The position numbers and the translations under genes were made by a program. Of a stretch of DNA of 17,418 bases, positions 793 to 17,418 are shown one piece after another; the first letter of the stretch is position 1; every line of letters begins with the position of its first letter. Source of the stretch: a virus (Duplodnaviria; Heunggongvirae; Uroviricota; Caudoviricetes); the IMG/VR virus record IMGVR_UViG_643692022_000009, one strand, 5' to 3'. The notes below the pieces were generated by a model, which was given only the letters and a program-made list of their open reading frames with translations, had not been told where the DNA came from and made no database searches.

Positions 793-801
793 TGCCCGGC
801 G
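781..801. terminator. GC-rich hairpin (8-bp perfect stem CGCCGGGC / GCCCGGCG, 5-nt loop) between convergent genes; possible bidirectional terminator
   Basis: Perfect inverted repeat read directly at 781-788 and 794-801. The TGA stop of the plus-strand NTase lies in the loop. An A/T run follows at 809-822 but is not immediately adjacent, so the call is weak. Confidence 0.3.
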
Positions 802-821
802 CCTTCCAATAAAAAAGTTTT

Positions 822-1550: not shown

Positions 1551-1591
1551 GTAATTTCCCTGTAGCGATTAGCAAAATATATAAGTAGTGA

Positions 1592-1619
1592 ACTATATTT
1601 GATGTAATTTACAATGCAA
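1592..1619 (-). promoter_or_regulatory. Candidate sigma70 promoter for the glycosyltransferase gene (-35 TTGCAT, 16-nt spacer, -10 TATAGT on the minus strand)
   Basis: On the minus strand: TTGCAT (plus 1614-1619), 16 nt, TATAGT (plus 1592-1597), about 40 nt upstream of the ATG at 1550, inside an AT-rich intergenic region. Confidence 0.35.
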
Positions 1620-1730
1620 TAGTTATTGTATTTAAATTCTTCTATATTCACTCAGTGGATGGTTAATATGGAAATATAATTACTGTGAATATTTATAAGC
1701 ATGTGCTTTGTTTGTGATGGAATATACAGC

Positions 1731-1758
1731 CTGATTAAAGCCGGGCTTGAAGCCCGGC
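1731..1758 (-). terminator. Candidate intrinsic terminator at the end of the tail operon (8-bp stem GCCGGGCT / AGCCCGGC, followed on the minus strand by UUUAAU)
   Basis: Perfect inverted repeat at 1740-1747 and 1751-1758, located 6 nt downstream of the stop of the 151-aa ORF (1764). The U-tract is short and interrupted. Confidence 0.35.
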
Positions 1759-1763
1759 GTAGT

Positions 1764-2219
1764 TTATGGTTGATATTGCCAACTGTTAACTAAAGCGTAC
1801 AAGTGGTTTGGGGAATAGCGCCAACTTTCTTTTAATTGCAGAAATTCGGCACAAAATTCGCTACAAAACAGGCGATCGCGCTGTTCTTTATTGCCGGTGA
1901 TAATTCCTAAGGCTCCACGCCAGTCGTATTTTTTGCCATCATGTTTACGGAAAAAAGCTTCTACATCCTGAAGGCTGACCTGGAGCGGCAGCATATCCCA
2001 CTTGTCTGGCGGTAAAGGCATTATCTTTCCACGAACGCCGCGATCGCGCAGAGAGGCGGAGTAACAAAGGTAACTCTTTTCTCCATGTGCTACGGCTAAT
2101 TCACAGTGGGAATAACTGCCGCGAGTGATTTTGCGTGTAAGCCAGTCAGCCAGTCTCGCAATAACCCGGTGCTCTGTTCGCCCTTTATAGCAAGCGAGCC
2201 AGACTGTAGTTTTACTCAT
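1764..2219 (-). CDS. Hypothetical 151-aa protein, translationally coupled to the tail-fibre assembly gene; possible permuted papain-like (LRAT / NlpC-P60-type) fold
   Basis: Its ATG overlaps the TGA of the upstream Tfa gene (ATGA, 2216-2219). Normal GC content. Contains 'YSHCELAVAHG' and a C-terminal 'FCSEFCAEF', reminiscent of the His...NCEHF arrangement of permuted NlpC/P60 enzymes. The fold assignment is from motif recall only. Confidence 0.6.
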   Translation of the reverse strand: MSKTTVWLACYKGRTEHRVIARLADWLTRKITRGSYSHCELAVAHGEKSYLCYSASLRDRGVRGKIMPLPPDKWDMLPLQVSLQDVEAFFRKHDGKKYDWRGALGIITGNKEQRDRLFCSEFCAEFLQLKESWRYSPNHLYALVNSWQYQP

Positions 2220-2923
2220 GGTTGCCAGCCTGTTGAATAATCGTAGTCGAGTACCGACTGAATATCGTCCAGAGCTTCCACCGCCGCGATATGGCGTTGG
2301 GCGTTGGCAAACAAGCGTATATCGTGATCCATTGTGACGGATTCAAACTGGGCAGCGATTTCGTTGGTTAACTCAGTCAGACCATTATTTTTAGTTTTCC
2401 ACATTAAACCTGGCGGAATTTTTTTCTCCGCTCCCATTTTTGTGAGTGAGAGTTGTTGGATGCGGCTGCTTGTATCACTGTGGAAGTAATTGTCGTTGAT
2501 GATGATGTAGTCGGTAGTGATGGAGTCGCGCAATGTTTTGATTTCGGCACATTTCGCCTGTTTAGCATCATCAATTGATGGCTGCCATTTTTCGCCATCC
2601 CAACGCTCAAAAGTACTGGTAGGGGAAATGATGGTGACAGTTTCAGGCAATTGACCCAATTTATTAATAATAATCTGGCTGCCATCAACTTTGTTATAAA
2701 CAGTTTGGCCTCGATGATCTTCAATAAGTTCCCATTTATTAATTGACCATATAGAAGTAAAACCTGCAATTTTTTGTGGTGGTGGTGTTAATGTGCAGTA
2801 ATTCGGTAGTCCAGTGTTTGGTGCTATATATACATTGGACTCACCAATAAATTCTTGTGTGTCTGGTGAAAAATTAAAAACAGATAAAATTTGTGCGTTA
2901 TCGGAAAAAGTAAAAGTATTCAT
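2216..2923 (-). CDS. Tail-fibre assembly protein (Tfa chaperone family), 235 aa
   Basis: N-terminal region ('[33 protein letters not shown]...[12 protein letters not shown]') matches the conserved N-domain of enterobacterial Tfa proteins. Its ATG overlaps the tail-fibre stop (ATGA, 2920-2923). The C-terminal half is divergent, as expected for a fibre-specific chaperone. Confidence 0.8.
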
Positions 2924-4500
2924 GCAAGCCTCACAATATAATTGAATGCAATGTTTTTAACAGTATTTTCTGTATTGCCAGTGTTATTGATGATAATTGA
3001 GTGATTATGTGTACCTAACACAATATTATGTGTATGACTTCCCAGTGCGATTGTATGTGCATGGGCGCCAATCGTAATACTATGATAATGACTACCAGCA
3101 GACTCAGTAGGTTCTCTGTAGTTCTCATCTGAATTGGGGCTGTTCCATAAAGACGGTCCATCTTTACCTTCTGCACCATCAGTTGGTATTCGGTGTGTAT
3201 GTTCTCCAGATGTGCTTGTATTTCTACTTCCATGATTAAATGAAGCTGTAGTTTTTGTTCCTAAGTCCGTAGAGGTAGATGTTATTGTCCCTAAATTGGT
3301 ACTAGAAATACTGCCCGTATGGTTATGTGATTTAACTCCATCCAGTTCAGTAGATAATATAGCGCGCCCACTGGATGGTTTTCCTTTAATTATCCATCCG
3401 CGCATATCAGGAATAACGCCAGATGGATATGCAATTGCCAGTTTGGGATAGGAGGTTTTATTAAATGTCTGACCAGTCATCAGAGCGTAGCCTGAAGGTA
3501 CAGAATCAGATGGCCAGGGTATAGGCATCCCTACAGGACAGCTTTCCGCAGCAATAGCCTTATCCATCGCTGCCTTAACCGCGTTCGGCGTTGCAGCTTC
3601 CGTCGTACTGGTGCTGTTGGTCGCATTATTAAGTTTCACGACCCCTTTTTGTGTCAGCGTACCGTCGGGGATACCTGTTATTTGCCCCCAGGCATGGGTA
3701 TGGCTGGACGGTGCCGCAGCAATAGCCTTGTCCATCGCTGCTTTAACAGCACTTGGCGTTGCAGCTTCCGTTGTACTGGTGCTATTTGTTGTGTTGTTAA
3801 GTTTAACGACTCCTTTCTGCGTCAGTGTACCATCAGGGATACCAGTAATCTGACTCCAGGCATGATTATGACTGGTGGCAGCTTTGCTATTTGCCAGGTC
3901 ATATGCCGTTTTTACCGCTTTTGGCGTGGCCGCTTTGGTTTCATCATCGCTATTAGTCGCATTACTCAGCTGCGTAAAACCTTTTTGTGTCAGCGTCGCA
4001 TCAGGATGATTTCGTGATTGCTGATGTGTTTTCAACGCGTCATCGACATATTCCCTGGTTGCCACAACGACTGAAGGGTCGATCAAAAGCGTCACCGCAT
4101 CTGCATTGGTGACTTCCATGACCGCGCGTATAACGATTTGCTTACTGGCCCCCGCAGGTAATCGTGGCTTATAGGTTTCAGGGATTTTTCCGATAGCGAC
4201 CAGCGTGCCGTCGGTATCCAGTAACCCAACTTCGCGTACATACCAGCCTCCGACTTGTTCGGGAATAATCGCTTCCGCGATAACCCAGGCCGGATTATCT
4301 GGCGCAATTTTTAACGTATTGAGCTGACCACGCCAGACCTCATGGACTACTTTAGTCTGACTTTCTGTCGGTTCGATATATTTACCATTACCGTCGCCAA
4401 CTACCATAGTTTGCAGACGGATCTGTTTTTGCTCCGTCAATGCAGAGGCAATTTTGGCTTTGCCTGCAGTAGTTAATATTGTAAAAAATTCACTTGCCAT
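2920..4500 (-). CDS. Tail fibre protein (P2 gpH / Mu S-like N-terminal anchor, central collar repeats, His-x-His C-terminal tip), 526 aa from the ATG at 4500
   Basis: From '[22 protein letters not shown]...VGDGNGK...HEVWRGQLN...[33 protein letters not shown]' the N-terminus closely parallels P2 gpH. GGAGGAATA lies just upstream of the ATG at 4498-4500, which overlaps the gpI stop (TAATG). The ORF track extends 42 codons further upstream to 4623, but that ATG lies inside gpI. The C-terminus carries HxH repeats. Confidence 0.85.
3548..4010. repeat. In-frame tandem coding repeats inside the tail-fibre gene: two near-identical 168-nt (56-aa) units plus a diverged third copy
   Basis: Units beginning 'gcagcaatagcct' at 3548 and 3716 (period 168 nt) encode 'HAW[S/G][44 protein letters not shown]'. 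A degenerate copy ('[37 protein letters not shown]') lies at about 3884-4010. These are the phage tail-fibre collar repeats. Confidence 0.85.
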
Positions 4501-5234
4501 TATTCCTCCGGATATACAGACATAATTTCGGTGCTCCAGTATCCTGTGCCGACCTTCATCGGTTGGGATTGTGTAAGGCGATCGGGTTGATAAGGTAGTA
4601 GTTGGATATATTCCTCCACACAATAACCCGTCGCTAAAAATATTCCTGATGACTGGCTGAGGCTTTCTGCAACAGGAGGCAATACTGTAATGACTTCCCC
4701 TCCTTGCATGGCGCTGCCAATAACTGGTATTGGGCTTCGATTAATAAGCCAAATAACAATGCTTTCCAGCTTTGAACGAACATTTTTATATTCATGAATT
4801 AATGTGATAAGTGCATTGAATTCATCTTCATTTAATCCTTTTTCCTCTAGTGTAATATTTACCTTAAAAAAATAAGCCCTTCCCCCATATTCAAACCATT
4901 CTGAAATAGTTCCGGGTAAGGAAAGTATTTCCAGCACCCGCCGTACCGCCCAAATTGTTCCTTTATATTTATGCAGTTCAATGGCTTGTTTAATTAACTC
5001 GCGCTTCTCCCGCTCATCGGTGGTAAATAACCAACCTTCCAGCCCCTGAACGTGAAATTGTTCTGCAAGGGCTGGTAATGCCGAAGCATCAACCAGGTCG
5101 ACCAGATAAACCATCAACGCCGTCAGATCGAGTTGGGCAAAACGCTCGGCGGCGATGTTTGCCAGAATCGAAAAACGCTCATCGCTGGCAAGCGGCGGCG
5201 GTGGCAGCAATTTATCCATCGCTGACTCCGGCAA
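4500..5234 (-). CDS. Baseplate / tail protein I (P2 gpI family)
   Basis: N-terminal '[13 protein letters not shown]' and overall pattern match gpI-family proteins; it sits between gpJ and the tail fibre as in P2 and R-pyocin clusters. The true start may be the internal Met (MDKLLPPP, 5219); both candidate starts overlap the gpJ 3' end. Confidence 0.8.
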
Positions 5235-6327
5235 TCGTGACGTCTATTGCAGTGCATTCCGCCCATTCATGCGCCTGCAAAATACGTTTTGTAGGCATAT
5301 TCAGCGCAACGTCATAGACGCCATCGACCTGTAACACTTTGATTATCTGGTTTGGCACAATGTCCTGCCCCAGATGTTTCTGCCGCTGTTGCGTCCAGAG
5401 GCTAATCGCTTTACGCGCCGCAGCCAGCGTTGTCTCCTGATCGGCGGTGGTAAACAGCGTTAGCTGAGCACGGATCTCATACGGCACTCGAAGAGCGCAT
5501 TTCGCACTCACTTTGTCGGTCAGCGGACGTTTTTTCTCCTTGCTAACCTCCTGTTCGATTTGCGCGAGCAGTTCTGTTCCCGGCAGTCCGTTCAGGGTTA
5601 GCGGGTAGATCTCCACGCAGCCTTCTGGCAATCCCTCGTCCGGCCCCAGTACTGCAACGTCAATAATCGACTGGCTAACAGAAAGCGTATGAAAGCGGTA
5701 TGCGCCATAGCTGCCCGCATTACTAAAGCTTTCTGGTGCCAGTTGGATACGCTGGCGCAATGCGTCATCGCTCTCCTCACCGCAGCCGCCCGTTGACGCA
5801 GTCAGGTTAGTTACGTTGATGTCATAATGACCCATCCTGTCGACCAGTGCGCTAATTTGTGCAGGCTGCCAGCCGTTGCCCTGTTCACCTGCTGCGAGGC
5901 TGGTGGCAGGAACGGCGATATGCAAACTCCTGGCCGGAAGCAGAACATCTTCATCGGTGGCGAACATCACGCTATCAGAGGCACTGGCCCGCGTCCCCTG
6001 GGGAATCAGGATATTGCTGGTATACGCACTGACGACCGAAAACTGCAACGTCGTTTTTGCAGGCTGCGCAGGCAAACGGTGAACGCCCACCAACTCCCCT
6101 AAATAATCCAGCATTGGCGCGCGGGAATACGCGACCAGGTTTTGTTTCGCCGCTTCCTGAATGGCGATGCGTACAAGGTTTTCACGATAGGCAAACAGGT
6201 CGATGAGCAACCGCTCAGCCTGTGCCGGATAGAGTTTTTTACCACTGGCATCTTCGTATTGCGCAATCATCTCACTGGTAATTTGCGCAGGATCGCGGTC
6301 AATAAAATTGGGTTCGGCTATCGCCAT
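5212..6327 (-). CDS. Baseplate assembly protein J (P2 gpJ / T4 gp6-like wedge), 371 aa
   Basis: Size and position (W-J-I order) with gpJ-like composition; start overlaps the gpW 3' end by 10 nt. Confidence 0.8.
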   Translation of the reverse strand: MAIAEPNFIDRDPAQITSEMIAQYEDASGKKLYPAQAERLLIDLFAYRENLVRIAIQEAAKQNLVAYSRAPMLDYLGELVGVHRLPAQPAKTTLQFSVVSAYTSNILIPQGTRASASDSVMFATDEDVLLPARSLHIAVPATSLAAGEQGNGWQPAQISALVDRMGHYDINVTNLTASTGGCGEESDDALRQRIQLAPESFSNAGSYGAYRFHTLSVSQSIIDVAVLGPDEGLPEGCVEIYPLTLNGLPGTELLAQIEQEVSKEKKRPLTDKVSAKCALRVPYEIRAQLTLFTTADQETTLAAARKAISLWTQQRQKHLGQDIVPNQIIKVLQVDGVYDVALNMPTKRILQAHEWAECTAIDVTIAGVSDG

Positions 6328-6677
6328 AACACCTCCGTTGAGTTGATAACGCCGTCAGCGGCGCGCCATTGCACACGTAACGTCAGATGTTCGCCGTCGA
6401 TTACTGGTGTCAGCTTCAGCAACCGACAGCGCGGTTCCCACTGGCGGATGGCTTCCACCGACTCCCGTACCACATGCGGGATTGCCCGCTCGATGGGGTA
6501 ATCGATGTAGTGCCACAAGTTGCTGCCAAACAGCGGTCTGTGGGGATCACTGCCGCGCGGTGTACGCAGAATGATGTGTATTGCCTGGTGAATATCATCC
6601 AGCCCGCAGACGTATTCTTCAGGCCGCTGCAAGGCCGGTTGCCAGTGCAGCGTTGAGGGTCGTGTTTTTGTGTTCAT
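6318..6677 (-). CDS. Baseplate wedge protein W (GPW / gp25 lysozyme-like family), 119 aa
   Basis: Size of about 120 aa immediately upstream of gpJ; sequence consistent with the GPW/gp25 family. Confidence 0.75.
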   Translation of the reverse strand: MNTKTRPSTLHWQPALQRPEEYVCGLDDIHQAIHIILRTPRGSDPHRPLFGSNLWHYIDYPIERAIPHVVRESVEAIRQWEPRCRLLKLTPVIDGEHLTLRVQWRAADGVINSTEVLWR

Positions 6678-6737
6678 GAGGGTATTTTCGCCCTGAACGG
6701 GCTGTGGCGATATTAAAGCGATTTAGAAAACTGATTG

Positions 6738-6770
6738 ATTAAAAAGAGAAAACCCGCCATCAGGCGGGTT
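6738..6770 (-). terminator. Strong intrinsic terminator between spike gene V and wedge gene W
   Basis: Minus-strand transcript reads AACCCGCC-UGAU-GGCGGGUU (perfect 8-bp GC-rich stem at plus 6751-6758 and 6763-6770) followed directly by UUCUCUUUUUAAUC. The hairpin starts 5 nt after the gpV stop (6776). Confidence 0.6.
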
Positions 6771-6775
6771 AAACG

Positions 6776-7477
6776 TCAGTGTGTATGGTGGTTGGAGTTG
6801 CCACCGCTGTCCTGCAATGCGCCGCTGGCCTGAACGTTGCCGATCACGTTGACATTGCCAGTTATCGTGGCGGCGTTACCGATGCCTCCACTTCCTGCCA
6901 TCCCGCCAAGCCAGGTGAGTTTTTTCATTACCGTGACGTTGCCAGTAAAGGTGCTCATGGGCGCATCTACCGTCACTGCTGCCGCTTTAACATCGACCTT
7001 AGTGGCGTCGATGCTGACATCGGTCGCTTTAACATCGACAGTATCGGAAGTCACGATGACCTGTTGGGCTTTAATCTCAACGTTGGGTGATGTCAGGCGG
7101 GTACTGTCGATAACCTCAATCACGATTTTCTCGATACCGCCGTTAATCGTCAGCTGGTGCGTGCTGCGGTCATATTCAAACGCTGCGCCATCAGAAAACT
7201 GGACGTAACGTTTATCGCGCGAGGCCACAGGCGCGGTGTCAACCGTAGAATAAACTGCGCCCAGCACCACGCCATCTTCACCGTTATTGTCCAGCAGAAC
7301 TTCCACTTGCTCGCCCATATCCGGTAGCCAGTAGTCTTTATTGTCCTGGGAATTGCGTTGAAGTACCGCAAGCCAGTTGCTCTTCAGATTGTCACACTCC
7401 GGGAGCGTGACCCGCACCCGAACGCTGGTTTCGTCAATATCGATGATAATCCCCGTTTGCCGGGTTACTCCTTTCAT
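6776..7477 (-). CDS. Baseplate spike / assembly protein V (P2 gpV family), 233 aa, with Gly-rich His-terminated C-terminus
   Basis: Position directly downstream of gpD and sequence character of gpV-family spikes; C-terminus '...GGMAGSGGIGNAATITGN...NSNHHTH' fits a metal-binding apex. AGGAGGAAATATG-type RBS upstream. Confidence 0.75.
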   Translation of the reverse strand: MKGVTRQTGIIIDIDETSVRVRVTLPECDNLKSNWLAVLQRNSQDNKDYWLPDMGEQVEVLLDNNGEDGVVLGAVYSTVDTAPVASRDKRYVQFSDGAAFEYDRSTHQLTINGGIEKIVIEVIDSTRLTSPNVEIKAQQVIVTSDTVDVKATDVSIDATKVDVKAAAVTVDAPMSTFTGNVTVMKKLTWLGGMAGSGGIGNAATITGNVNVIGNVQASGALQDSGGNSNHHTH

Positions 7478-7486
7478 ATTTCCTCC

Positions 7487-8527
7487 TTACTGGCTGGTCG
7501 CTGGCCCGCGCGACACGTCGATTTCAGTGGTATAGCCGCTGCGCACAAAACTGTGAGTAGATTTATCAATTAGCCATTGACCGGAAAGCACGCCAAAATC
7601 GGTTAGCTCGATTTTATTGCCCGCCGTCAGTTCCGGGCAGCCCATCATTGTGAGCGTTCCGGTTTGCTGATATTCGTTGTGGCTGTCGAGTGCAGCGTTG
7701 GCTTTTGCCTGTGCTGCGCCAACGTCCGTCGCCCGACTGTTCAGTTTTAGCGTGTCGGCACTGGTGCCGACTCCACGGGCAGACGGTTTTTGCTGGCTGT
7801 CGTGGGTGTAGATAACCAGTTCTTTTTTCTTACTATTTTGATGCTGTACGGTGGCGTTTTTGTAGATACGGTTAATGGTATCTTTGAAGGTGAAATGCGA
7901 AACGTCTTTGCGGTCGATCGTTTTTACCGGTGCCAGGCAGCGCAGCGTGGGTAAATGTGAAAAAATCAGCTCTTTTGTCGTCACTTTTACGGCATAACCA
8001 TATTCACTGGCCAGACGTTTGAGAAATCCGACATCGGTTTCACCATACTGCGTTACCCGGTCGATGGTGAGCGGCTCGATTTTGCCCACCAGTTTCAGAC
8101 CGTGCGTTTGGGCGATACGGCTGGCGATAGCCGAAAGCGTCGTTTCTTCAAAGCCCTGGCTGTTACGGGTGCGCAGCGCCTGATTGACGGAAGTGGCGAT
8201 GCCATCAATATTTACCGTGGAAGGTGGCGCTGAAATATCAATTTTATCAATAATATATTGACCACAATCGAGCAGTTTTTCCCCCTGATAACCCATATGC
8301 AGCGCCAGCGTATCGCCTTTGCCGGGATACCACTCTTTTATCCAGCGTCCATCGGTGTCATCCAGTGTAATCGCGATGGTATCCGACTCGTTTTTAATAC
8401 TGTCCTGGTAACTGATGCTGGTGACATAAGGCGTGATGTCATAAGTGATATCTTTATGCCCATACCAGAGGGTAAAAATGGGCGCGAGCGTGGCAAAGAC
8501 GCCGCCAGTTACGCTTATCTCAGCCAT
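7487..8527 (-). CDS. Tail protein D (P2 gpD late-control-D family baseplate hub), 346 aa
   Basis: Size and position (U-X-D order as in R-type pyocin and P2-like tails); gpD-like N-terminus. Confidence 0.8.
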   Translation of the reverse strand: MAEISVTGGVFATLAPIFTLWYGHKDITYDITPYVTSISYQDSIKNESDTIAITLDDTDGRWIKEWYPGKGDTLALHMGYQGEKLLDCGQYIIDKIDISAPPSTVNIDGIATSVNQALRTRNSQGFEETTLSAIASRIAQTHGLKLVGKIEPLTIDRVTQYGETDVGFLKRLASEYGYAVKVTTKELIFSHLPTLRCLAPVKTIDRKDVSHFTFKDTINRIYKNATVQHQNSKKKELVIYTHDSQQKPSARGVGTSADTLKLNSRATDVGAAQAKANAALDSHNEYQQTGTLTMMGCPELTAGNKIELTDFGVLSGQWLIDKSTHSFVRSGYTTEIDVSRGPATSQ

Positions 8528-8727
8528 GGTGGGAGCTCCGATACGGTTTTGTTGACGGAAATGACCGGAATGATGAGCTGAATACCGGAAGGTAGTACCG
8601 GGTAAATGGCGACATGTGGATTGGCGGCGATAATGCGTTCATAAGCCAGCGCATCGCCATAGTAATGCCATGCCAGATTATCCCAGCGTTCGCCGTCGGT
8701 GGTGATATGTTCAAGGTATCGCATCAC
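8515..8727 (-). CDS. Tail protein X (P2 gpX family, LysM-like), 70 aa
   Basis: A 70-aa protein with 'DGERWDNLAWHYYGD...IIAANPHVAIYPVLPSGIQLIIPVI' parallels gpX ('GDTLD...RYYG...AANP...LP.G..L.IP'). Start overlaps the gpU-like stop (ATGA). Confidence 0.75.
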   Translation of the reverse strand: MMRYLEHITTDGERWDNLAWHYYGDALAYERIIAANPHVAIYPVLPSGIQLIIPVISVNKTVSELPPWLR

Positions 8728-9677
8728 CAGCTCCTCGTAATGGTTGCGGCAGCAAACTGACTCACTGCTGGAGTGGTTCGTTGTACCGTTGTTCGTGCCT
8801 GATCAACCAACGTTGCTGCTTTATCAAACGTCGTTTCGGCGATGTCGCTGGTAATGTCATCGAAAAGCGCCTGAGCATGGTCAACCAGCGTACTGGCGTC
8901 ATTGGCGCAGTCCCGGATACCTGGCATGTTACCCAGTAAAGCTTTAATCTGCGCCGACAACGCTTTTGGGAGTCCTGCCAGCGTTTGCAGATCCATCGGC
9001 TGTATAAACAGGGTTTCGATGGCGTCGATTGTCTTTTTCAACGACGTAATTATCTTTTCACACTTTTCTTTTAACGCTTTGGCCTCTTTAATCAGTGCTT
9101 TCACTTTTGCCACTGTTTTTTTAATATCTTCAATGGATTGCGCCAGTTCATCGAGCATCTCTTTGGCTTTGCGCATACCTTCTTCAATGGCGTTCAATAT
9201 CTGATCTAACCAGGACTCCTCCTTATTCGGAAAATCGCTCGCCTTTTCCTCGATATTAGGCTCCTGGGTGGTAATTGCCGGGGGCAGCAGTGGGTTTTTC
9301 GGATCGCCGGTATACTCCTGGAGCGACATTGTTCCACTTTGGGCAATCACATTGCCCCAGGGATCGGTGTGCTGGTGAGTGGCGGTTAACTCTGTAATTA
9401 CAAACCAGCCGCGATAATCTCCGTTGCCAAACACCAGCGCCATTGCTTTGTGGGCGAGCATGGCTTCACGCAGTCGATTCAGCTCTGTTGTGGGTTGGCA
9501 AAACTGGCTGTGCAGGGAAAATTCCAGCGCCAGCATATCCAGCTTATCGCCAATAAACTGTACGCCAGGTTTGCCTTCAATACGGGCATGTGTGGCGTAA
9601 TCCACGCCCATTGTGCTCTTAAAGCCATCCCAGAACGTGACAACTTTAAATTCAATCTCTCCTAAAACGGCATACAT
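8724..9677 (-). CDS. gpU-like tail terminator domain fused to a roughly 190-aa C-terminal coiled-coil-rich extension (317 aa total)
   Basis: N-terminal 'MYAVLGEIEF...RIEGKPGVQFIGDKLDMLALEFSL' parallels P2 gpU ('MMLALG...F...RIGKRDAFQFLGVGEENITLAGVL'). The C-terminal half is K/E/A-rich with heptad-like periodicity. Start overlaps the tape-measure stop. Confidence 0.7.
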   Translation of the reverse strand: MYAVLGEIEFKVVTFWDGFKSTMGVDYATHARIEGKPGVQFIGDKLDMLALEFSLHSQFCQPTTELNRLREAMLAHKAMALVFGNGDYRGWFVITELTATHQHTDPWGNVIAQSGTMSLQEYTGDPKNPLLPPAITTQEPNIEEKASDFPNKEESWLDQILNAIEEGMRKAKEMLDELAQSIEDIKKTVAKVKALIKEAKALKEKCEKIITSLKKTIDAIETLFIQPMDLQTLAGLPKALSAQIKALLGNMPGIRDCANDASTLVDHAQALFDDITSDIAETTFDKAATLVDQARTTVQRTTPAVSQFAAATITRSW

Positions 9678-12052
9678 CAGGCATACCCCCGGCGCTGCTG
9701 CTGCGCCATTACATCGTTAATCATTCTTTCCAGTTCGCGTTTACTCATCGTCAACACGTTCTGAATCTCTTTAGTGGTGTTTTGTCCGTTACCCTGCACG
9801 GTAATTTGTGGCGAAAAATTCACCTGAACTTTTCCTGAGGAACGGGAAGGTAGCGTCGCCGCTTTGGTTACGGATTTACCAGGTAAAGAGGCCGATGCTT
9901 GTTTGGCGGCTGTATTTTTTGCCGCTGATGCCGATGGTAGCGTTGTCGTTTTACTGGATGGCGCGAGTTGTTTCCCCACTGGAGGCGTTAAAATCGCACC
10001 GGCAACGCCTGGAACAACGGTCGTGGAGGAGACGGATGCGGTATTACTCGTGCTTGTAACAGCCGTAGCCGATCCTTCTGTACTAATACCCATCGTGGTT
10101 TTTAGCCAGTCCGGTAAGGCGTTTTTGATCTGGTCAATAATGCCTTTCAGAGCGGGGAAGGCATTTATTATGCCGTCAACCAGACTGCCCAGAAGATTGC
10201 TGCCGAACTCGCTAAAACTTGCAGGCATCTCGACACCAAACCAATTCATCACACTGGAAAAGGCGCTATAGAACAAAGCCAGCGGCGACCAGTCGAGAAT
10301 CAACCGGCAAATCCCTGCAATACCGCCGTCAAAGGCCGTGGTGATACGTTGCCAGATGGTCGAAAAGAACCTGGAGATAGGCTCCCAGTTGCGATAAATC
10401 AGATAAGCAGCACCCGCAATTGCGGTGATGACCAGGCCAATGGGATTCATCAATAAAACCCTACCCAACCAGAAGACGGTCTGACCTACCTGTTTCAGTG
10501 CGCCAATCAGGCCACGACCAAGCAGTTGCATTAGCCATTTTGCGCCGCCACCCAATGACTTAACCGCTGATAGCATCTTACTTGCCCCGCCTGTGAGCGC
10601 CAGACTTGCCTTGACTTTCAGGAAGATATCGACCAGACGAATAAACGGCGAGGTGATGAGGTTCGCGCCCAGCTTTAAAACATTCAGCGCACCGTTAAAC
10701 AGCCAAATCGCCCCGACGATTTTCGCGATGTTTTGCACCAGTGTCGGGTGCTCACGTAGCCAGGTGCTGAACTGACGAATAACCGGCGTAAGGCTTTGTG
10801 CCAGCTCGCCAATCAGCGGCATTAATTGCAAGCCAATGCTGAGCCATAAATCATTTAACGCCAGCTGTAACGCTTTAGTCTGTTCAATGGGCGAGGCCAT
10901 TTGCGCAGAAAAGTCGGCATCAATCAGATTCTTGCTGGTGGCTTGCATGGCAGAGGTTTTTAACTGGCGATATTCCTCCATATTCGCCAGCATAGGTGCC
11001 AGGAATTCCACCGTTTGCGCATCGCCGAACATTTCGCCCAGATTAAATTGCGTCACCATCGATTGCAGCGCATTGCTGCGAGCAGATAAATCTTCAATCT
11101 GCATAGTTCGTTTGAAGGTGTCGAGGATCGCCGGATTCATCTTCTCAAGCTGCATTTGTACGATATGAGTCATGGCTTCGCTAACACCCATACCGTTTTG
11201 CTGATGTTCAAGCAGAGAGCCTTGCAGATCGACGCCCTGGCTGGCGAACCAGTTATCGGTCTTTTTCGAAAAGGTGGTTTGCAGAAAGTGGTCGAAATTC
11301 TCCGCCGCCGCACTGGCGCTGGCTCCGTTTTTCATGGCGATCTGCATGGCGGCAGTCAGTTCAGCCATACCTTCCAGACCCTGAGCGCCGGTTTTACCTG
11401 CAAATTTGTCTATCCACAGCGTTTGCTCGGCAACGGCAGGCCCACCGCTTTTGCTAATGCCGTACATCATGTTTTGCGCGACGTGGAAATTTTCTGGCGC
11501 AATATTCAGTCGATCATGGGTTGCGAGCGCGGCATTCGCCCATGTTTCAGCACTTTCGCGCGTGGCGGTGGCAGCTTTGGCGATCTCCGGCATATAACGG
11601 TTGAGATCCTGTATCGACGACAAATTGCCTTCGATCAGCGTTTGGGCTGCGTTCTGTAAGGTGGTCTGATGCTGGTTAAAATCCATGCTCCAGTCGCGCA
11701 GATTAAGGCTGAGCGTCTCGCGAGTTGTATCATTCATCCCACCTTTGGTCGCCATATTGACCATGTTGTCCTGGAACTCATACGGCAACTTCCAGTCGGG
11801 GGCTTCAACATTGAATACTTTGCTAAATTGCCCGGCAAATGTGTGGGTTTTCTCCATCAGATTAGCGCGGCTGCGGCTATTTTCCTCCAGGCGGAGAGCG
11901 GAATCGGCAAGCCGCTGCGTTAGTTTGATAACTGTCGCTTGCTGAGTAGAGAGAGCTAACAATGTTCTGGCGTTGAGTGAGCCGTAACGGGCTATTGCCT
12001 GCGTCAACGTCTCATTACGCGCCTGAAGCTGGGTAATAATATCGTTGGCCAA
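9677..12052 (-). CDS. Tail tape measure protein, 791 aa
   Basis: Long alpha-helical protein with central hydrophobic segments and an S/T/A-rich low-complexity C-terminal region, located between the chaperone gene and gpU as in all P2/Mu-type tails. Confidence 0.85.
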   Translation of the reverse strand: MANDIITQLQARNETLTQAIARYGSLNARTLLALSTQQATVIKLTQRLADSALRLEENSRSRANLMEKTHTFAGQFSKVFNVEAPDWKLPYEFQDNMVNMATKGGMNDTTRETLSLNLRDWSMDFNQHQTTLQNAAQTLIEGNLSSIQDLNRYMPEIAKAATATRESAETWANAALATHDRLNIAPENFHVAQNMMYGISKSGGPAVAEQTLWIDKFAGKTGAQGLEGMAELTAAMQIAMKNGASASAAAENFDHFLQTTFSKKTDNWFASQGVDLQGSLLEHQQNGMGVSEAMTHIVQMQLEKMNPAILDTFKRTMQIEDLSARSNALQSMVTQFNLGEMFGDAQTVEFLAPMLANMEEYRQLKTSAMQATSKNLIDADFSAQMASPIEQTKALQLALNDLWLSIGLQLMPLIGELAQSLTPVIRQFSTWLREHPTLVQNIAKIVGAIWLFNGALNVLKLGANLITSPFIRLVDIFLKVKASLALTGGASKMLSAVKSLGGGAKWLMQLLGRGLIGALKQVGQTVFWLGRVLLMNPIGLVITAIAGAAYLIYRNWEPISRFFSTIWQRITTAFDGGIAGICRLILDWSPLALFYSAFSSVMNWFGVEMPASFSEFGSNLLGSLVDGIINAFPALKGIIDQIKNALPDWLKTTMGISTEGSATAVTSTSNTASVSSTTVVPGVAGAILTPPVGKQLAPSSKTTTLPSASAAKNTAAKQASASLPGKSVTKAATLPSRSSGKVQVNFSPQITVQGNGQNTTKEIQNVLTMSKRELERMINDVMAQQQRRGYA

Positions 12053-12141
12053 AATTGTTTCTCTTATAGATTGGTGATGGCCCGCTGGTTAGTTTTCTGA
12101 AAAATGGGCTGGGAAGAAATAAACCTGGCGGGCTTTGAAGA

Positions 12142-12166
12142 ACTCGCAGACATCAGGTCTGCGAGT
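12142..12166. other. Perfect 10-bp inverted repeat (ACTCGCAGAC / GTCTGCGAGT, 5-nt loop) in the chaperone to tape-measure gap
   Basis: Read directly from sequence. On the minus strand the hairpin spans the stop codon of an open +1-frame extension of the chaperone gene and is followed by UUCUUCAAAG (a poor U-tract). Possible attenuator or frameshift-associated structure. Confidence 0.4.
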
Positions 12167-12240
12167 CATATTCGATCTTTATTTGAGCGCTGGCTTCATC
12201 CAGCCAGTTGCTAAAGTCATCTATGGTGAGCGCGTCTATC

Positions 12241-12558
12241 TCACTGGGCGGAAAGCGAAACCATCTCGCCAGTAACGCCATCGCTTGCCATAACAGTGGC
12301 GGATTCTGTAGCCACGCTAAGCATGGATTGAAATCGTTTCTGCAATGCCTGGTAATCCAGCAAATCCATTTCAGCTAAATCTTCTGGCACCAGTCCGGTC
12401 ATTGCCGCCATTAGCGGTTCATCCCATTCTTCTGGTTTTTCGCTGATCCGGCGCGCGTTGCGCATATCTTTTACTTTCAGGCGACGTAATTGCAGCGTGT
12501 CGATATTATTTCCTGCTGCCGACGTAAATGGAAACTGCAAGATATAATGTTCTTTCAT
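12241..12558 (-). CDS. Tail assembly chaperone (P2 gpE-like), 105 aa
   Basis: Small acidic protein in the conserved slot between the tube and tape-measure genes; sequence pattern parallels gpE. A 189-nt gap follows before the tape-measure ATG, where an E-prime-type extension would be expected. Confidence 0.65.
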   Translation of the reverse strand: MKEHYILQFPFTSAAGNNIDTLQLRRLKVKDMRNARRISEKPEEWDEPLMAAMTGLVPEDLAEMDLLDYQALQKRFQSMLSVATESATVMASDGVTGEMVSLSAQ

Positions 12559-12608
12559 TTTGTGTCCTTATTTATTTTGCAAAGTTCGGGGCCGTAGCCC
12601 CGAATAAC

Positions 12609-13133
12609 TTAGCCACCGATGTTATTGCGATAGGTACTTAATTGATCCACACCATTAACCCGGAAAATATTGGCCATATAATCAAGTTCAAGCAGCGTTT
12701 CACCATCAACTACTTGTTTAATATAAGTGCAACCAAAGGCGCTGCTGAATTCCGGGTTTTCATTCTGTTTAAATGTGCCCAGTGGATTCTTTTTAAACAT
12801 CACGGTTAAATGTGTCACTAACGCTAATTGATTCGCTTTCCCCTGGGAGTTATAGCAATCAATACTGGAGCGGCACTGTAATGCCACCGCCTGCCACGGG
12901 TTTGCCGTTTTACGCATGACGTCCTGATAAAAGGAGTTCCATTTAATTTCGCCCTCCAGTTTATCGAAACCTGCCGGGAGTTCGATTTTGCCGACCATAC
13001 CCAGTGCCTTATGCTCTTGCATAATTAAACTGACATCCGGCAATTTAATTTCGGTTGCACGACCTAAAAGGTTATTACCATCGAGATAAATATTGGCGTT
13101 GGTAATACGGTTAATTTGAATTTTTCCAGCCAT
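12609..13133 (-). CDS. Major tail tube protein (P2 gpFII family), 174 aa
   Basis: Size and position immediately downstream of the sheath gene (start overlaps the sheath stop by 1 nt); tube-family sequence character. Confidence 0.85.
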   Translation of the reverse strand: MAGKIQINRITNANIYLDGNNLLGRATEIKLPDVSLIMQEHKALGMVGKIELPAGFDKLEGEIKWNSFYQDVMRKTANPWQAVALQCRSSIDCYNSQGKANQLALVTHLTVMFKKNPLGTFKQNENPEFSSAFGCTYIKQVVDGETLLELDYMANIFRVNGVDQLSTYRNNIGG

Positions 13134-14563
13134 TAGCTATTGCTCTCCAGAGAGACTAAATATTCAGAAGTAATTTCAGTTTCAAACGTCAGACGTTCCA
13201 GCGGCGGTGGCGGGGTGAATTTATAGCTCAGCAATAAATGCCCGGCGCTGAGTTCGGTCGGTGAATTTCGCGCCGGATCGTACCAGCACTCAAAGCCAAG
13301 CAGTGCGCCGTCGGCAATCAGCTTACGGCCCCAGGTATTTACCGATTCGGTCAGGGCATCAATCAGCGCCTGATTAATCGGCATATCAATATACTGCTGA
13401 CTGAAATAACGGATTGACTCATTAATTACATCGCCTGTCCGGCGGGCGTTTTCAAAGTTACGCATATGGGTCACGGTAGGCCATGCCGCTGTGCGGTTGC
13501 CCCACAAGCGCAGACCAGAGCCGTAACTATTGAAAATAGTGGTAATGCCGTTTTCGTTGAGCTGATTCACTTCGCTTTGAGGATCATCAATCATTGCGGA
13601 AAGCGAACGTTCAATACCGGTAATACCCTGAATTTCCTGGTTTGAGTTGCTCCACCAGAAACCTTTTTCGAGGTCTACTTTGGCACGTAGCCCGGCAGCG
13701 CGCGAAGAGAGCGGTTCGAGAACTTCCTGGTTAGTGATGCCATCGTAAACTTTGACGTGTGGGTAACATAAACGCGCACGATCAGAGCTGGTGTTGAAGT
13801 TGATAGCCCCTTGCGAACCGCGTCCTGCCAATACCTGCTGGAATGTCGTCCCAATCGGGGCATCAATGTAGGTAATCGCACCAAGTTTTTCCGCTTGTGC
13901 AATCAGCTCGGTAGTTACTGATTTTTGCGTACAGAACACGGGAGCAAGCAGGATTTTGGCGTAGAAACCATACAGGTTATAGGTGTCCTGTAGCAGTTTC
14001 ATCCCCGTGCGATCGCCTGCGGTATTAACGGCACCGATAATATCGGCTGCGGTGACCTTTGTAGGGTCGCACCAGGAATAATAGGCGCAAACTTTCGCAC
14101 CAGGAGGAATGTCGGCTCCTGTACGGGTAATTATGCCTGTTTGTTCATCTACGCTAAATGCTGCGGTGTTATAGGTTGATGAATTTGATGAAGAGGGCTT
14201 TAGAACCACGTTACGCACATTGCGGTGAGCGAGTTTCGCCTGGTTGTTAGCGTCAAAAGTGATACTCTCATTGCTGATGTTGGAGCCATGTTTTGCCGGA
14301 TCCAGCACGTTAATCACCACCACCGTACCGGCACCGTGGTCATAAATCGCCTTCAGTGCCTGCGGGATCGTAAAGTTAGCCTGAGTCGAACCAAACTGCG
14401 CAGCATCGCTTTCAGAAAGGCATAATGTTGGTTTATTTACCGGACCACAGGGGGCCGTACCGATTAAAGCGATGACGGCGGATTTTACCGCTTTAACCGG
14501 ACGCGGGCCGGTTTCAATTTCAATGGTTTCTACACCGTGCAGATAATTAGCTGCCATGTACAA
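13133..14563 (-). CDS. Contractile tail sheath protein (P2 gpFI / Mu L family), 476 aa
   Basis: N-terminus 'YLHGVETIEIETGPRPVKAVKSAVIALIGTAP' is the conserved sheath start (compare P2 FI 'YHHGVQVLEINEGTR...'). Size is typical of sheath proteins. Confidence 0.9.
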   Translation of the reverse strand: MYMAANYLHGVETIEIETGPRPVKAVKSAVIALIGTAPCGPVNKPTLCLSESDAAQFGSTQANFTIPQALKAIYDHGAGTVVVINVLDPAKHGSNISNESITFDANNQAKLAHRNVRNVVLKPSSSNSSTYNTAAFSVDEQTGIITRTGADIPPGAKVCAYYSWCDPTKVTAADIIGAVNTAGDRTGMKLLQDTYNLYGFYAKILLAPVFCTQKSVTTELIAQAEKLGAITYIDAPIGTTFQQVLAGRGSQGAINFNTSSDRARLCYPHVKVYDGITNQEVLEPLSSRAAGLRAKVDLEKGFWWSNSNQEIQGITGIERSLSAMIDDPQSEVNQLNENGITTIFNSYGSGLRLWGNRTAAWPTVTHMRNFENARRTGDVINESIRYFSQQYIDMPINQALIDALTESVNTWGRKLIADGALLGFECWYDPARNSPTELSAGHLLLSYKFTPPPPLERLTFETEITSEYLVSLESNS

Positions 14564-14744
14564 TTTCCTCTCCGTTATTTTGTTCTTCCTGAGTGATGAC
14601 AGGTGTCAGATGATTGCGGGCAATCATGGTCATGACCCACTCGTTGTCTTCTGGCAGATCAATTTCACTGTTCGGCCACAATAAGATTTCTTGTCCGTCG
14701 GCAAGGGTGACGCCGCTTGCCGGGCCGTTGTAGATGTATTTCAT
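14547..14744 (-). CDS. Small conserved phage protein (65 aa), possibly Mu gp38-like (DUF2635-type)
   Basis: Tightly packed between the upstream ORF (ATGA overlap at 14741-14744) and the sheath gene (17-nt overlap), matching the small ORF that precedes the sheath gene in Mu-like tail modules. The family assignment is from memory and not verified. Confidence 0.35.
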   Translation of the reverse strand: MKYIYNGPASGVTLADGQEILLWPNSEIDLPEDNEWVMTMIARNHLTPVITQEEQNNGEEIVHGS

Positions 14745-15196
14745 TCAGTTTCCTCGTAATTAACTTCAGTAAGCAGGGTAAGGTCCGTGCTTTCCCGTTT
14801 CGCGATAAACAGCGAGCTGGTCGCCATTTCCAGGATGTAGCGGCAGAAACCACCGCTCTCGCCTGCATTGATTTCTTTTTCAAGCCAAAGAAGACGCTCG
14901 CAATCAGGAAGCTGGATCCCCCCCAGTGCGCTGCGTATGCGGTCCAGTGCGTTTAACGCGTCACAATTTTTGCCAACAATAACGGTGGCAGTTAAACGGA
15001 GCGTTTGCTGTTGCACGAGAGCATCACTGCTTTCAGACATGGCAAATAGAGAACCGCTATAATTAATAATCACTGTAACTTGCTGCGTCTGCGGAATATA
15101 TTTATGGGCATCAACCGATGAAATAGATACATCCATTTCGGGATTCTGTTCACATAATCTGGTCACAACAGAATTCATTACTGATAAAATTTCCAT
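14741..15196 (-). CDS. Hypothetical tail-module protein, 151 aa; candidate tail completion / terminator-type protein (Mu gp37-like by position)
   Basis: Uninterrupted ORF with AAGGGA 8 nt upstream of the ATG, co-oriented with and immediately upstream of the sheath operon. No diagnostic motif recognised. Confidence 0.35.
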   Translation of the reverse strand: MEILSVMNSVVTRLCEQNPEMDVSISSVDAHKYIPQTQQVTVIINYSGSLFAMSESSDALVQQQTLRLTATVIVGKNCDALNALDRIRSALGGIQLPDCERLLWLEKEINAGESGGFCRYILEMATSSLFIAKRESTDLTLLTEVNYEETE

Positions 15197-15313
15197 ATAG
15201 GGTATCCCTTAATTATCGCTGATTCGTTAACGCTCACTTCGTTATCGTTGAAATGTATTCTGACGTAGTGAAGGTGAAGGATCTTTTAATCTGCTTTAGA
15301 GAAAAAATTGAAT

Positions 15314-15628
15314 TTAATAGCTACCGCGTTGTAATAGCTCTATTTTGCTATATAAGGCATCCAGCTTTGCTTCTAATACTGCCTGGCCACGAAGATAATC
15401 TTCTCTGCGGACATAATGCAGCGGAAGCTCGGCACGAAATTCGAGAAATTCTCTTTCCAGTTTCGACCAGTTTGTTTCTGATTCCCGGCGCGCGTTTTCC
15501 AGAGATTCAAAACGCTCATTAAGTCTTTTTTCAATTTGCGCTAACAGCAATTTTCCGGCAGCAAACATTAATCCAACGAAGGAAAGCATAAGGGAGATCA
15601 CTTCCCAAAAATCGATACTGAGTTTCAT
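15314..15628 (-). CDS. Membrane-anchored coiled-coil protein, 104 aa; candidate i-spanin or other lysis accessory protein
   Basis: N-terminal hydrophobic segment ('VISLMLSFVGLMFAAGKLLL') followed by a charged helical region with heptad character; located 12 nt downstream of the lytic transglycosylase gene. No o-spanin lipoprotein partner was identified. Confidence 0.45.
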   Translation of the reverse strand: MKLSIDFWEVISLMLSFVGLMFAAGKLLLAQIEKRLNERFESLENARRESETNWSKLEREFLEFRAELPLHYVRREDYLRGQAVLEAKLDALYSKIELLQRGSY

Positions 15629-15640
15629 CGGCCCCTCTGA

Positions 15641-16246
15641 TTAGTGAAGACAGCTTGCCTGTCCCCAGAGTAAATAGCGGGCGGCGTGTTGATAGAGAAT
15701 CATCTTTGGATAGCGACGATTTTCTCGCCAGTTCGTGGCGCTGCGCCCGGCGTTGACTTGCTCAACATGACCAAACCAGAGAGTGGCATCTAGCCCTTTG
15801 GATACAGCCAGTTTTTTATCCCGATTAACCCATCCCTGACCGCCGTTATAGGCGCTTAGGGTAAACGCCATACGCTGACAATCATTTTTCGCAGAGATGT
15901 TTTTCCACAAATACTGGTCATATTGCACCAGCGCGCGAATCGCCCAGGTTGGGTTATACGGTTTGTTTTCACGCAACTGCGGATACAACTGGCTTACCCA
16001 TGTCGCTGTAGCAGGCATGAATTGCGCCATACCTTGTGCGCCAACGGGGGAACGTACCATTGGCTGCCAGGCGGACTCCTGGTGTAATTGCCCGGCAAAG
16101 TCGGCCACTGGGGCATTCAGTCCCCAGACTTCTCGAGCGGTACGAATTAGTTCGTTTCGCCATGCCAGAGAGGCTCTCGGCGGTTCAGAGGCGTTGAGTG
16201 GGAAAAGAACGAAAATAATCATAGACGCGATATATTTCAGCCACAT
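15641..16246 (-). CDS. SLT-domain lytic transglycosylase (endolysin) with N-terminal signal or SAR-like hydrophobic segment, 201 aa from the ATG at 16246
   Basis: Contains the family-1 lytic transglycosylase motif with catalytic Glu: 'HQESAWQPMVRSPVGAQGMAQFMPATA'. N-terminus 'MWLKYIASMIIFVLFPLNASEPP'. The ORF track extends to 16345, but the ATG at 16244-16246 lies 2 nt after the upstream gene stop and begins the hydrophobic segment. Confidence 0.8.
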   Translation of the reverse strand: MWLKYIASMIIFVLFPLNASEPPRASLAWRNELIRTAREVWGLNAPVADFAGQLHQESAWQPMVRSPVGAQGMAQFMPATATWVSQLYPQLRENKPYNPTWAIRALVQYDQYLWKNISAKNDCQRMAFTLSAYNGGQGWVNRDKKLAVSKGLDATLWFGHVEQVNAGRSATNWRENRRYPKMILYQHAARYLLWGQASCLH

Positions 16247-16248
16247 CA

Positions 16249-16536
16249 CTATAGCCCTAACGCGACGGAAAGGCAGACGGCAGCAACGATGATAGCCCGG
16301 CGAATCATTGCCGCCGCGCAGCAACGCGGTTCCTTCCAGGGGCAAAAAGAGTCAGGCCGTGCCCAGGGGAACAAACTGCGATCGAGCCAGTATCCCAGCA
16401 CCGCGGAAAGCGAAACCAGGCTTAGTTTATAAATGACGACCGGGATTTGTGCTGAAGAGGTCCAGCCGATCACGACAAACAGCGCGACGGAAGCGACCAG
16501 CCAGCCGGAAAGCCGGGGAAATGTGATTTTTTTCAT
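16249..16536 (-). CDS. Small membrane protein with three hydrophobic segments, 95 aa; holin candidate
   Basis: GGAGAT lies 5 nt upstream of the ATG. Hydrophobic stretches 'WLVASVALFVVIGW', 'IPVVIYKLSLVSLSAVLGYWL' and 'AIIVAAVCLSVALGL'; stop lies 2 nt before the endolysin ATG. It lacks the charged C-terminal tail typical of holins, so confidence is moderate. Confidence 0.5.
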   Translation of the reverse strand: MKKITFPRLSGWLVASVALFVVIGWTSSAQIPVVIYKLSLVSLSAVLGYWLDRSLFPWARPDSFCPWKEPRCCAAAMIRRAIIVAAVCLSVALGL

Positions 16537-16832
16537 ACGATATCTCCTGATAAATGAGCGTTTAGTGTCGTCAGAACCCGCCAGTGAAGAATGAAAAAAG
16601 CTTTAATAAATAAGTTTAAAAAATAGATTCTCTATAAATGAACATGCCCGCTAATAAATCCACCCGTCAATAAAAGAGCAAAAGGTGACCTGGCGAACAA
16701 GTGCATCATTATGCAGGGGAAAGATGATGGTGGATCGTAGGAATATTCGATAGTTATTTGATTTTTAAAGTTTGTTTAAGAAAGTCAGCGACTGTGAGGG
16801 AAACGATCTTTTTACACTACAAGTAAAAATAA

Positions 16833-16852
16833 TACTGTATGTGTATACAGTA
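16833..16852. promoter_or_regulatory. LexA (SOS) box, TACTGTATGTGTATACAGTA
   Basis: Matches the E. coli LexA consensus TACTGTATATATATACAGTA (CTGT-N8-ACAG) at 18 of 20 positions, differing only at two central, weakly conserved positions. It lies in the divergent AT-rich intergenic region between the Mor-like gene and the lysis/tail operon. Confidence 0.65.
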
Positions 16853-16873
16853 TCGTGTAAAATGATACACCTG

Positions 16874-16904
16874 TTGACAAGAAACATAACGCAAACAATA
16901 TATC
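16874..16904 (+). promoter_or_regulatory. Candidate sigma70 promoter reading toward the Mor-like gene (-35 TTGACA, -10 AATATA / TATATC at 17-19 nt spacing)
   Basis: Consensus TTGACA at 16874-16879, 22 nt downstream of the LexA box, with A/T-rich -10 candidates at 16897-16904. A second dyad (GTGTA-N6-TACAC, 16856-16871) lies between the LexA box and the -35. Confidence 0.35.
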
Positions 16905-17073
16905 TATTTCATGAATTTATGGCGTTCATTAATATTAAAAATTTATATTTTTGTTAATTGTTTATTTGTTTGTTGAATGTATTGAGTAGCAGTAATGACA
17001 ACTGCTTAGCGTATATCCGTGGTTTTACACGCATCGGGTCTTATTCAGGATGCAAGATATATGGAGATGAAAA

Positions 17074-17418
17074 ATGATACGAAAATCAAAAGAGATGGCC
17101 CGGACACCGGAGATCATTAACGACCTGGCTTTTCATGCATCGCAAGTTCTGATTGAAAGCATCAATCTCGACAGTTCATCGGCAGAAAATGTGGGCTTTG
17201 CCATTGCCGACCGAATGATGCGTAACTGGGGCGGACAAAGCATTTATTTCCCTAAGGGGATCTCCGGACGAGCATCGGAGCGTGACTACCAAATCTATAG
17301 CGAGTGCGATGGGCGCAACTACGCCGAATTAGCGAAGAAATATAATCTGACGCTGCAATGGATTTATAAGATTGTGAAGCGGGTGCACGCAGAAAAACAG
17401 CAGCAACGTCGGATGTAA
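17074..17418 (+). CDS. Mor/C-family transcriptional activator (phage Mu middle/late activator family), 114 aa
   Basis: C-terminal region 'WGGQSIYFPKGISGRASERDYQIYSECDGRNYAELAKKYNLTLQWIYKIVKR' parallels Mu Mor ('GGGQVYIPRGQALDSLIRDLRIWNDFNGRNVSELTTRYGVTFNTVYKAIRR'). Complete ORF ending in TAA at the window edge. Confidence 0.8.
   Translation: MIRKSKEMARTPEIINDLAFHASQVLIESINLDSSSAENVGFAIADRMMRNWGGQSIYFPKGISGRASERDYQIYSECDGRNYAELAKKYNLTLQWIYKIVKRVHAEKQQQRRM

Follow-up and report, generated by a model that had tools for sequence, protein, structure and literature searches.

The window, by which we mean the whole 17,418-nucleotide stretch that was analysed, holds a headless BcepMu-type contractile-tail cluster together with a lysis cassette. 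On its minus strand the lysis genes (holin, SLT-type endolysin and lipoprotein) are accompanied by tail genes for Gp37, sheath, tube, chaperone and tape measure, by baseplate genes of the gpU-, gpX-, gpD-, gpV-, gpW-, gpJ- and gpI-like types and then by fibre and fibre-assembly genes. The contractile-tail set and the lysis cassette are both complete, all as intact open reading frames, and no head, packaging, replication/transposition, integration or repressor genes were found in the window. The cluster is thus a candidate R-type tailocin, the killing particle being predicted from its genes. A gene for a Mor/C-family transcription activator (hereafter mor) is divergent from the holin gene, and a control region of 537 bp separates the two. 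The features of the locus, with the box sequences of the relatives discussed below, are collected in Table 1.

Table 1 Features of the mor-holin locus (positions are those of the window) and LexA box sequences in related clusters
Feature	Position	Strand	Remark
Mor/C-family transcription activator gene (mor), 114 aa	17074..17418	+	PF08765
Holin gene, first of the lysis/tail operon	16249..16536	-	Pfam Holin_2-3, PHROG holin, RefSeq annotation
Rest of the operon, SLT endolysin to fibre-assembly genes	1764..16246	-	
LexA operator (SOS box), predicted, TACTGTATGTGTATACAGTA	16833..16852	.	2 mismatches to consensus
Conserved octamer TGTAAAAT	16856..16863	.	Candidate rightward -10 TAAAAT (16858-16863) or leftward -35 TTTACA (16861-16856)
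UP-like A-tract GTAAAAATAA (16823-16832) and weak -35 CTGTAT (16835-16840)	16823..16840	+	Proposed mor promoter elements
Alternative leftward sigma-70-like promoter, TTTACA-16-TACAGT	16834..16861	-	Spacer and -10 inside the box
TTGACA of the sequence-only reading	16874..16879	+	Not conserved
Conserved block TTTGATTTTTAAAGTTT	16757..16773	.	Kept even in box-less lineages
Candidate activator-dependent late promoter, TTTAATAAATAAGTTTAAAAAAT (16602-16624) and GAAGAATGAAAA (16586-16597)	16586..16624	-	
Salmonella box, AACTGTATATATATACAGTA			
Dryocola box, TACTGTTTATTTATACAGTA			
Phytobacter box, TACTGTATATGCATACAGTA			
Superficieibacter box, GACTGTATATGCATACAGTA			
Box of contig L028, TGCTGTATATAAACACAGTG			

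The E. coli chromosome matches the window at 97-99% identity, and the locus is carried by 197 of 5,426 complete E. coli genomes (3.6%). The complete strain A37 genome has it between housekeeping genes, with yjbD, slipin and RlaP on one side and lysC on the other, lysC beginning 54 bp past mor; the RlaP-family nucleotidyltransferase gene also flanks the cluster in the window (1-792). The same lysC-pgi position is occupied in Salmonella and Enterobacter, and the Salmonella counterpart corresponds to STM4198-STM4219 of LT2. Several differences among carriers were seen away from the control region. The distal end of the cluster varies among strains (window 1-2219 compared with L001 4639-5872), the fibre region of the window is unlike that of strain A37, and the window has an extra glycosyltransferase-like gene. 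Salmonella Infantis carries gtrABC-like O-antigen glucosylation genes between the gpW-like and gpV-like baseplate genes (L021, 6131-8966), and two Salmonella contigs (L019, L020) have lost the entire tail cluster while retaining mor and about 200 bp upstream of it. The lexA gene and its two operators lie only about 22 kb from the cluster in strain A37 (L034, 372000-376000). Within the literature that was searched, no paper dealt with a native E. coli or Salmonella tailocin or with the regulation of this locus, and papers that mention STM4213 and STM4217 were uninformative on SOS.

The activator is a clear member of its family. It matched PF08765 at 130 bits (cutoff 24.9) over residues 10-113, has the Mor domain with a C-terminal helix-turn-helix, aligned to residues 58-123 of Mu Mor 1RR7 (E 3e-8) and to Mu C (E 8e-5), and had 'late transcriptional activator' as its PHROG match. 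Its closest phage relatives are the Bcepmuvirus activators (45-49% identity), and the phiE255 homologue is annotated 'RdgB'. In complete Bcepmuvirus phages the mor homologue ends the early operon, directly after gemA, and has no control or promoter region of its own, so that a headless derivative would have needed a new input for mor. Since no LexA box was found near mor either in these complete phages or in Pasteurellaceae Mu-like loci, the LexA operator described below appears to be specific to the headless enterobacterial cluster. Mor is the sole regulator detected or annotated in the element and its flanks. The sequence-only reading had noted that the window holds no CI-like repressor gene; this was borne out and extends to the genomic flanks in strain A37, where no repressor gene was present and the far side carries only slipin, RlaP and yjbD.

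That reading had also pointed to a near-consensus LexA box between mor and the lysis/tail operon, and the site stood up to each comparison. TACTGTATGTGTATACAGTA matches the LexA consensus TACTGTATATATATACAGTA at 18 of 20 positions, with both mismatches at central positions; it is the sole match with no more than 3 mismatches in the 17.4-kb window, and dinucleotide shuffles of the window gave none (0/200). To score its strength we derived a weight matrix from 29 known E. coli SOS boxes. The sequences of two of these, the lexA operators, were confirmed in strain A37, and as a control both were found upstream of lexA as expected. With this matrix TACTGTATGTGTATACAGTA scored 24.8 bits, placing it among the top 3 when set against the 29 known E. 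coli sites, whose leave-one-out scores ranged from 7.5 to 25.9 bits (median 19.4; two of the 29 exceed TACTGTATGTGTATACAGTA). LexA's own operators in strain A37 scored lower, at 20.5 and 19.7 bits. When the whole window was shuffled 2,000 times no score reached 24 bits, and shuffling the AT-rich intergenic region alone gave such a score about once in 20,000 shuffles. A second LexA-like site, TCCTGGCCAATTATACAGTA (1392-1411, 16.7 bits), was treated as a chance match, its score being reached by 2.5% of shuffles; it lies inside an open reading frame on the minus strand (822-1550) for a phage glycosyltransferase-like moron (phrog_1962) that is absent from strain A37.

We next compared the mor-holin intergenic regions of Dryocola, Phytobacter, two Superficieibacter species, Salmonella Infantis and several assembly contigs. 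Column identity averaged only about 60% in these regions, yet a LexA box of 21-29 bits was present in 9 of 11 lineages, the carriers being Salmonella, Dryocola, Phytobacter, Superficieibacter and the contigs L024 and L028 (both unassigned). Throughout 10 distinct alleles and orthologues CTGT-N8-ACAG was invariant. Variation was restricted to positions 1, 2, 7, 9, 11, 12, 14 and 20 of the box and was free at positions 1, 9, 11 and 12, and in the three intact E. coli alleles the box differs only centrally, with substitutions in its flanks as well. Such invariance of CTGT/ACAG beside free variation elsewhere is what selection on LexA contacts, as opposed to a generic palindrome, would produce. 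The box is also held at a nearly constant distance from the activator gene (241-250 bp from box start to mor ATG in all orthologues but one, which has a 61-bp insertion), whereas its distance to the holin ATG varies among orthologues from 297 to 342 bp. Taking sequence and conservation together, we predict with high confidence that TACTGTATGTGTATACAGTA is a genuine LexA operator. The near-perfect match in Salmonella means that this box may already figure in in-silico lists of the LexA regulon.

LexA control is not required throughout the family, since the box is missing from two lineages. In Enterobacter hormaechei (L022/L023, 2496-3000) it has decayed to AGTGTTTATTATAAAATGG; the conserved block proximal to the holin gene, described below, has diverged there too, and the genes appear intact. 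In the metagenome-assembly contig L027 (1190-1215), whose Mor is 89% identical, a different perfect palindrome, GCTTTTATAAAAGC, occupies the position of the box, which suggests that the operator was swapped for the site of another regulator and that the operator slot can be re-assigned. The box has been interrupted within E. coli as well. In 11 of the 197 carrier genomes, CE10 included, an ISL3-like ISEc53 element with a ClbS/DfsB-family gene sits exactly in the middle of the box, flanked by an 8-bp target duplication, ATGTACAT (window 16839-16846; L031 CE10 1100-3010). This insertion destroys the operator and splits both of the promoters predicted around it. The slot is thus found in several states: a LexA box in most lineages, another palindrome in one, decay in Enterobacter and an insertion-sequence knock-out in some E. 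coli.

The exact placement of ISEc53 at mid-palindrome in those 11 genomes could also indicate that the palindrome was retained for something other than LexA binding, whether as an insertion hot spot, as the site of another dimeric protein or as a weak hairpin or terminator. For the last of these, a 10-bp hairpin can form in the minus-strand RNA ahead of the U-run UUAUUUUU (-9.7 kcal/mol, z -3.7). In the other genera, however, the stem shrinks to 5-7 bp (-5.6 to -8.6 kcal/mol, z -0.8 to -2.1), and in Dryocola and L028 the changes in the stem, at positions 7 and 14, are not matched by compensating ones. The hairpin/terminator reading was rejected as weak and not conserved. Against any origin outside LexA binding, the invariant part of the palindrome is precisely the LexA-contacted CTGT/ACAG, and the 20-mer fits the consensus better than most validated sites. 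We regard retention of the palindrome for such a reason as very improbable.

Around the box, the promoter signals are conserved in position but ambiguous in direction. Each orthologue that has the box also keeps an octamer, TGTAAAAT, 5 bp to the right of it (in Dryocola it reads TGTAAAGT, with a gap of 6 bp), and every orthologue has an A-rich tract immediately to the left of the box. We propose that these form a rightward promoter for mor, with the A-tract as an UP-like element, CTGTAT inside the box as a weak -35 and TAAAAT of the octamer as the -10 at a spacing of 17 bp; transcription would start near 16870 and leave a leader of about 200 nt before mor. The -35 is a poor fit, sharing just 2 of 6 positions with the consensus. 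The sequence-only reading had placed the mor promoter elsewhere, taking a TTGACA just to the right of the box as its -35 and pointing to a second dyad, GTGTA-N6-TACAC (16855-16870), beside it. Neither detail survived comparison intact. In place of TTGACA the commonest E. coli allele has TTGATA, and other genera lack the hexamer; TTGACA also has no acceptable -10 at 16-18 bp and would leave the box some 20 bp upstream of the core promoter. The dyad is present in the sequence, and its left arm is part of the conserved octamer TGTAAAAT; its right arm, however, becomes TACTC within E. coli and is not conserved elsewhere.

Read on the other strand, the same octamer supplies the -35 of a promoter facing the holin gene (TTTACA, 16861-16856), with a 16-bp spacer and a -10, TACAGT (16839-16834), that together would set the start near 16827. 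LexA might therefore repress the holin/tail operon directly, either alone or along with the mor promoter as a divergent pair, in which case Mor would be a co-activator or be controlled in some other way. Several observations speak for this arrangement: TTTACA-16-TACAGT was the only hexamer pair to pass a sigma-70 consensus scan of 16400-17200 (9/12 matches), most orthologues keep TTTACA at the same spacing, no terminator-like site intervenes up to the holin gene, and the conserved 'TG' of TGTAAAAT would be superfluous for a rightward -10. The scan, however, returned one pair where 2.6 were expected by chance, so the match is not significant, and the leftward -10 degrades among relatives (CAGCAT or TACAGC in L028, AACAGT in Dryocola). 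A leftward promoter as the target would also sit poorly with the variable box-holin and fixed box-mor distances, and it accounts neither for the separate conserved block near the holin gene nor for the need for Mor. We consider direct repression of the leftward promoter unlikely, though it is the main rival reading. The box overlaps both predicted promoters, and LexA bound there would occlude either one.

Because the conserved promoter signals overlap the box and can be read in either direction, mor is only the likely direct target of LexA. It is favoured as the main target because its spacing from the box is fixed while that of the holin gene varies, because L028 retains the rightward -10, TAAAAT, with its leftward -10 degraded, because the headless derivative needed a new mor promoter, and because a separate, well-conserved block sits where an activator-dependent late promoter would be expected. 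This last block, found 50-90 bp ahead of the holin ATG, occurs only once in the window and is the best conserved non-coding block across genera; its 23-bp AT-rich part contains TTTAA-N9-TTAAA. Promoters activated by Mor or C of phage Mu have no -35; they require the activator, which binds near -43.5, and carry an A/T-rich alpha-CTD site immediately upstream of the activator site (PMC4390567). We infer that Mor acts at the holin-proximal block. The block holds no dyad of the Mu type (5-bp inverted repeats around a 6-bp GC-rich spacer), and no further copies of it, which would be a sign of internal Mor promoters, were found in the cluster.

The intergenic region contains further signals. Two blocks, TTTGATTTTTAAAGTTT and TTGAATGTATTGA (about 16973-16985), are kept even in the box-less lineages and are possible IHF-like or autoregulatory sites. 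No Rfam match was obtained in the region at E <= 1. A conserved leader RNA structure upstream of mor was considered and rejected, as the consensus fold reached only -5 kcal/mol essentially without covariation; a conserved small open reading frame was likewise rejected, as only short, non-conserved frames are present and indels separate the genera.

These additional blocks, at 16757-16773 and about 16973-16985, raise the question of whether LexA is only a minor modulator, the main off-switch being an unlinked cleavable repressor of the RdgA/PrtR type or H-NS-type silencing. The intergenic region has 33% GC compared with 48% for the window, which leaves room for silencing by nucleoid proteins as an added layer, and Pseudomonas tailocins are co-regulated by H-NS-like proteins (PMC12066065). 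Lineages without the box exist, one of them with a different palindrome in the same place, and strains with the IS-disrupted alleles are viable. This viability says little, however, since the insertion also splits both predicted promoters. The element and its neighbourhood have no repressor gene, and a near-consensus box conserved across genera argues for strong selection on LexA binding. A main off-switch other than LexA seems to us quite improbable.

The best explanation of the locus, and one that we hold with moderate confidence, is a two-step circuit in which LexA represses mor and Mor activates the conserved holin-proximal late promoter. It builds on direct findings: the site itself, how strong and how conserved it is, the genes of the cluster and the lack of a local repressor; from these we infer that LexA binds the box, and which promoter it represses. 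In undamaged cells, LexA on the box would block RNA polymerase at the rightward mor promoter (A-tract, weak -35 within the box, 17-bp spacer and -10 TAAAAT at 16858-16863). Sustained DNA damage would lead to RecA-stimulated self-cleavage of LexA, the promoter would be freed and Mor would be made. Mor would then activate the late promoter, which would lack a -35 and lie some 50-90 bp ahead of the holin gene, and so turn on the lysis and tail genes. Production of the killing particle and lysis of the cell would in this way probably be tied directly to the SOS response. A two-step circuit of this kind had been put forward in the sequence-only reading, and its outline holds, in that the box is strong and conserved, no repressor is encoded by the element and a cascade is the most economical arrangement; what fell away were the promoter details built on TTGACA and the second dyad.

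The closest analogue of the proposed circuit is the RdgA/RdgB cascade of Pectobacterium. The RdgB protein belongs to the Mor family, a placement echoed by the 'RdgB' annotation of the phiE255 Mor homologue. In Pectobacterium carotovorum, DNA damage acts through RecA, RdgA and RdgB to induce pectin lyase, carotovoricin and lysis, and carotovoricin is a tailocin of the Mu type with no repressor gene in its cluster (PMC13566846 and its refs 46, 66). Like that cascade, the circuit predicted here is SOS-dependent, enterobacterial and two-step, with a Mor-family activator that switches on lethal functions; in Pectobacterium these are lethal or secreted functions. There, however, a dedicated cleavable repressor, RdgA, lies beside rdgB, whereas here a host LexA box lies at the activator gene, and no RecA-cleavable repressor of the RdgA or PrtR type was found beside the activator in the element or its flanks. 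The R- and F-pyocins of Pseudomonas follow the same logic as proposed here: damage removes PrtR, which allows PrtN to act on P-box promoters of the tail and lysis genes (PMC12066065, PMC8609362). The pyocins use PrtR and PrtN where LexA and Mor would serve here, and PrtR is element-encoded and itself cleaved, LexA not being the direct repressor there.

With respect to the SOS box itself, the resemblance is to colicin operons. In colicins one or more strong SOS boxes cover the promoter of a lethal, lysis-linked bacteriocin and no repressor is encoded by the element; high-affinity LexA boxes are thought to delay induction until damage is severe. The present locus shares the strong box and the lack of an element-encoded repressor. 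In colicins the box is on the toxin promoter, whereas here an activator step is apparently interposed and the predicted product is a phage-tail particle. Host LexA also directly gates a phage-derived regulatory gene in coliphage 186 (Tum) and in the Gifsy-type antirepressors. Those products are antirepressors that act against a resident phage repressor, whereas the target proposed here is a transcription activator and no repressor is present.

The Mor-C cascade of Mu and BcepMu supplies the activator, which is homologous and whose gene likewise adjoins lysis and tail genes. In those phages mor lies in a repressor-controlled early operon, whereas here it has its own 537-bp region with a predicted LexA operator and is divergent from the late operon. 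Complete BcepMu-type phages have no such box, which suggests that control was rewired to LexA during domestication. We give about even weight to the fuller form of this idea, in which a BcepMu-type tail was domesticated, a single host LexA operator on mor replaced the repressor-controlled early operon to give a cascade from SOS through Mor to lysis and tail genes that has no phage repressor, and the operator slot has been evolutionarily exchangeable.

Much of the theme is familiar. SOS control of bacteriocins and tailocins is expected, a Mor-type intermediate is known from Pectobacterium, and nothing established is overturned; a direct host LexA box on a Mor-type activator is probably a variant of the known SOS-tailocin theme. 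If the proposed circuit is correct, one operator, one activator and one late promoter would decide when carriers, which comprise 3.6% of complete E. coli genomes and many Salmonella, fire a suicidal phage-tail weapon. It would be the first control circuit to be defined for a native R-type tailocin of E. coli and Salmonella, and would show host LexA taking over a phage late activator during domestication. It would also bear on the use of SOS-inducing antibiotics such as quinolones, on competition between strains in the gut and on the engineering of E. coli tailocins.
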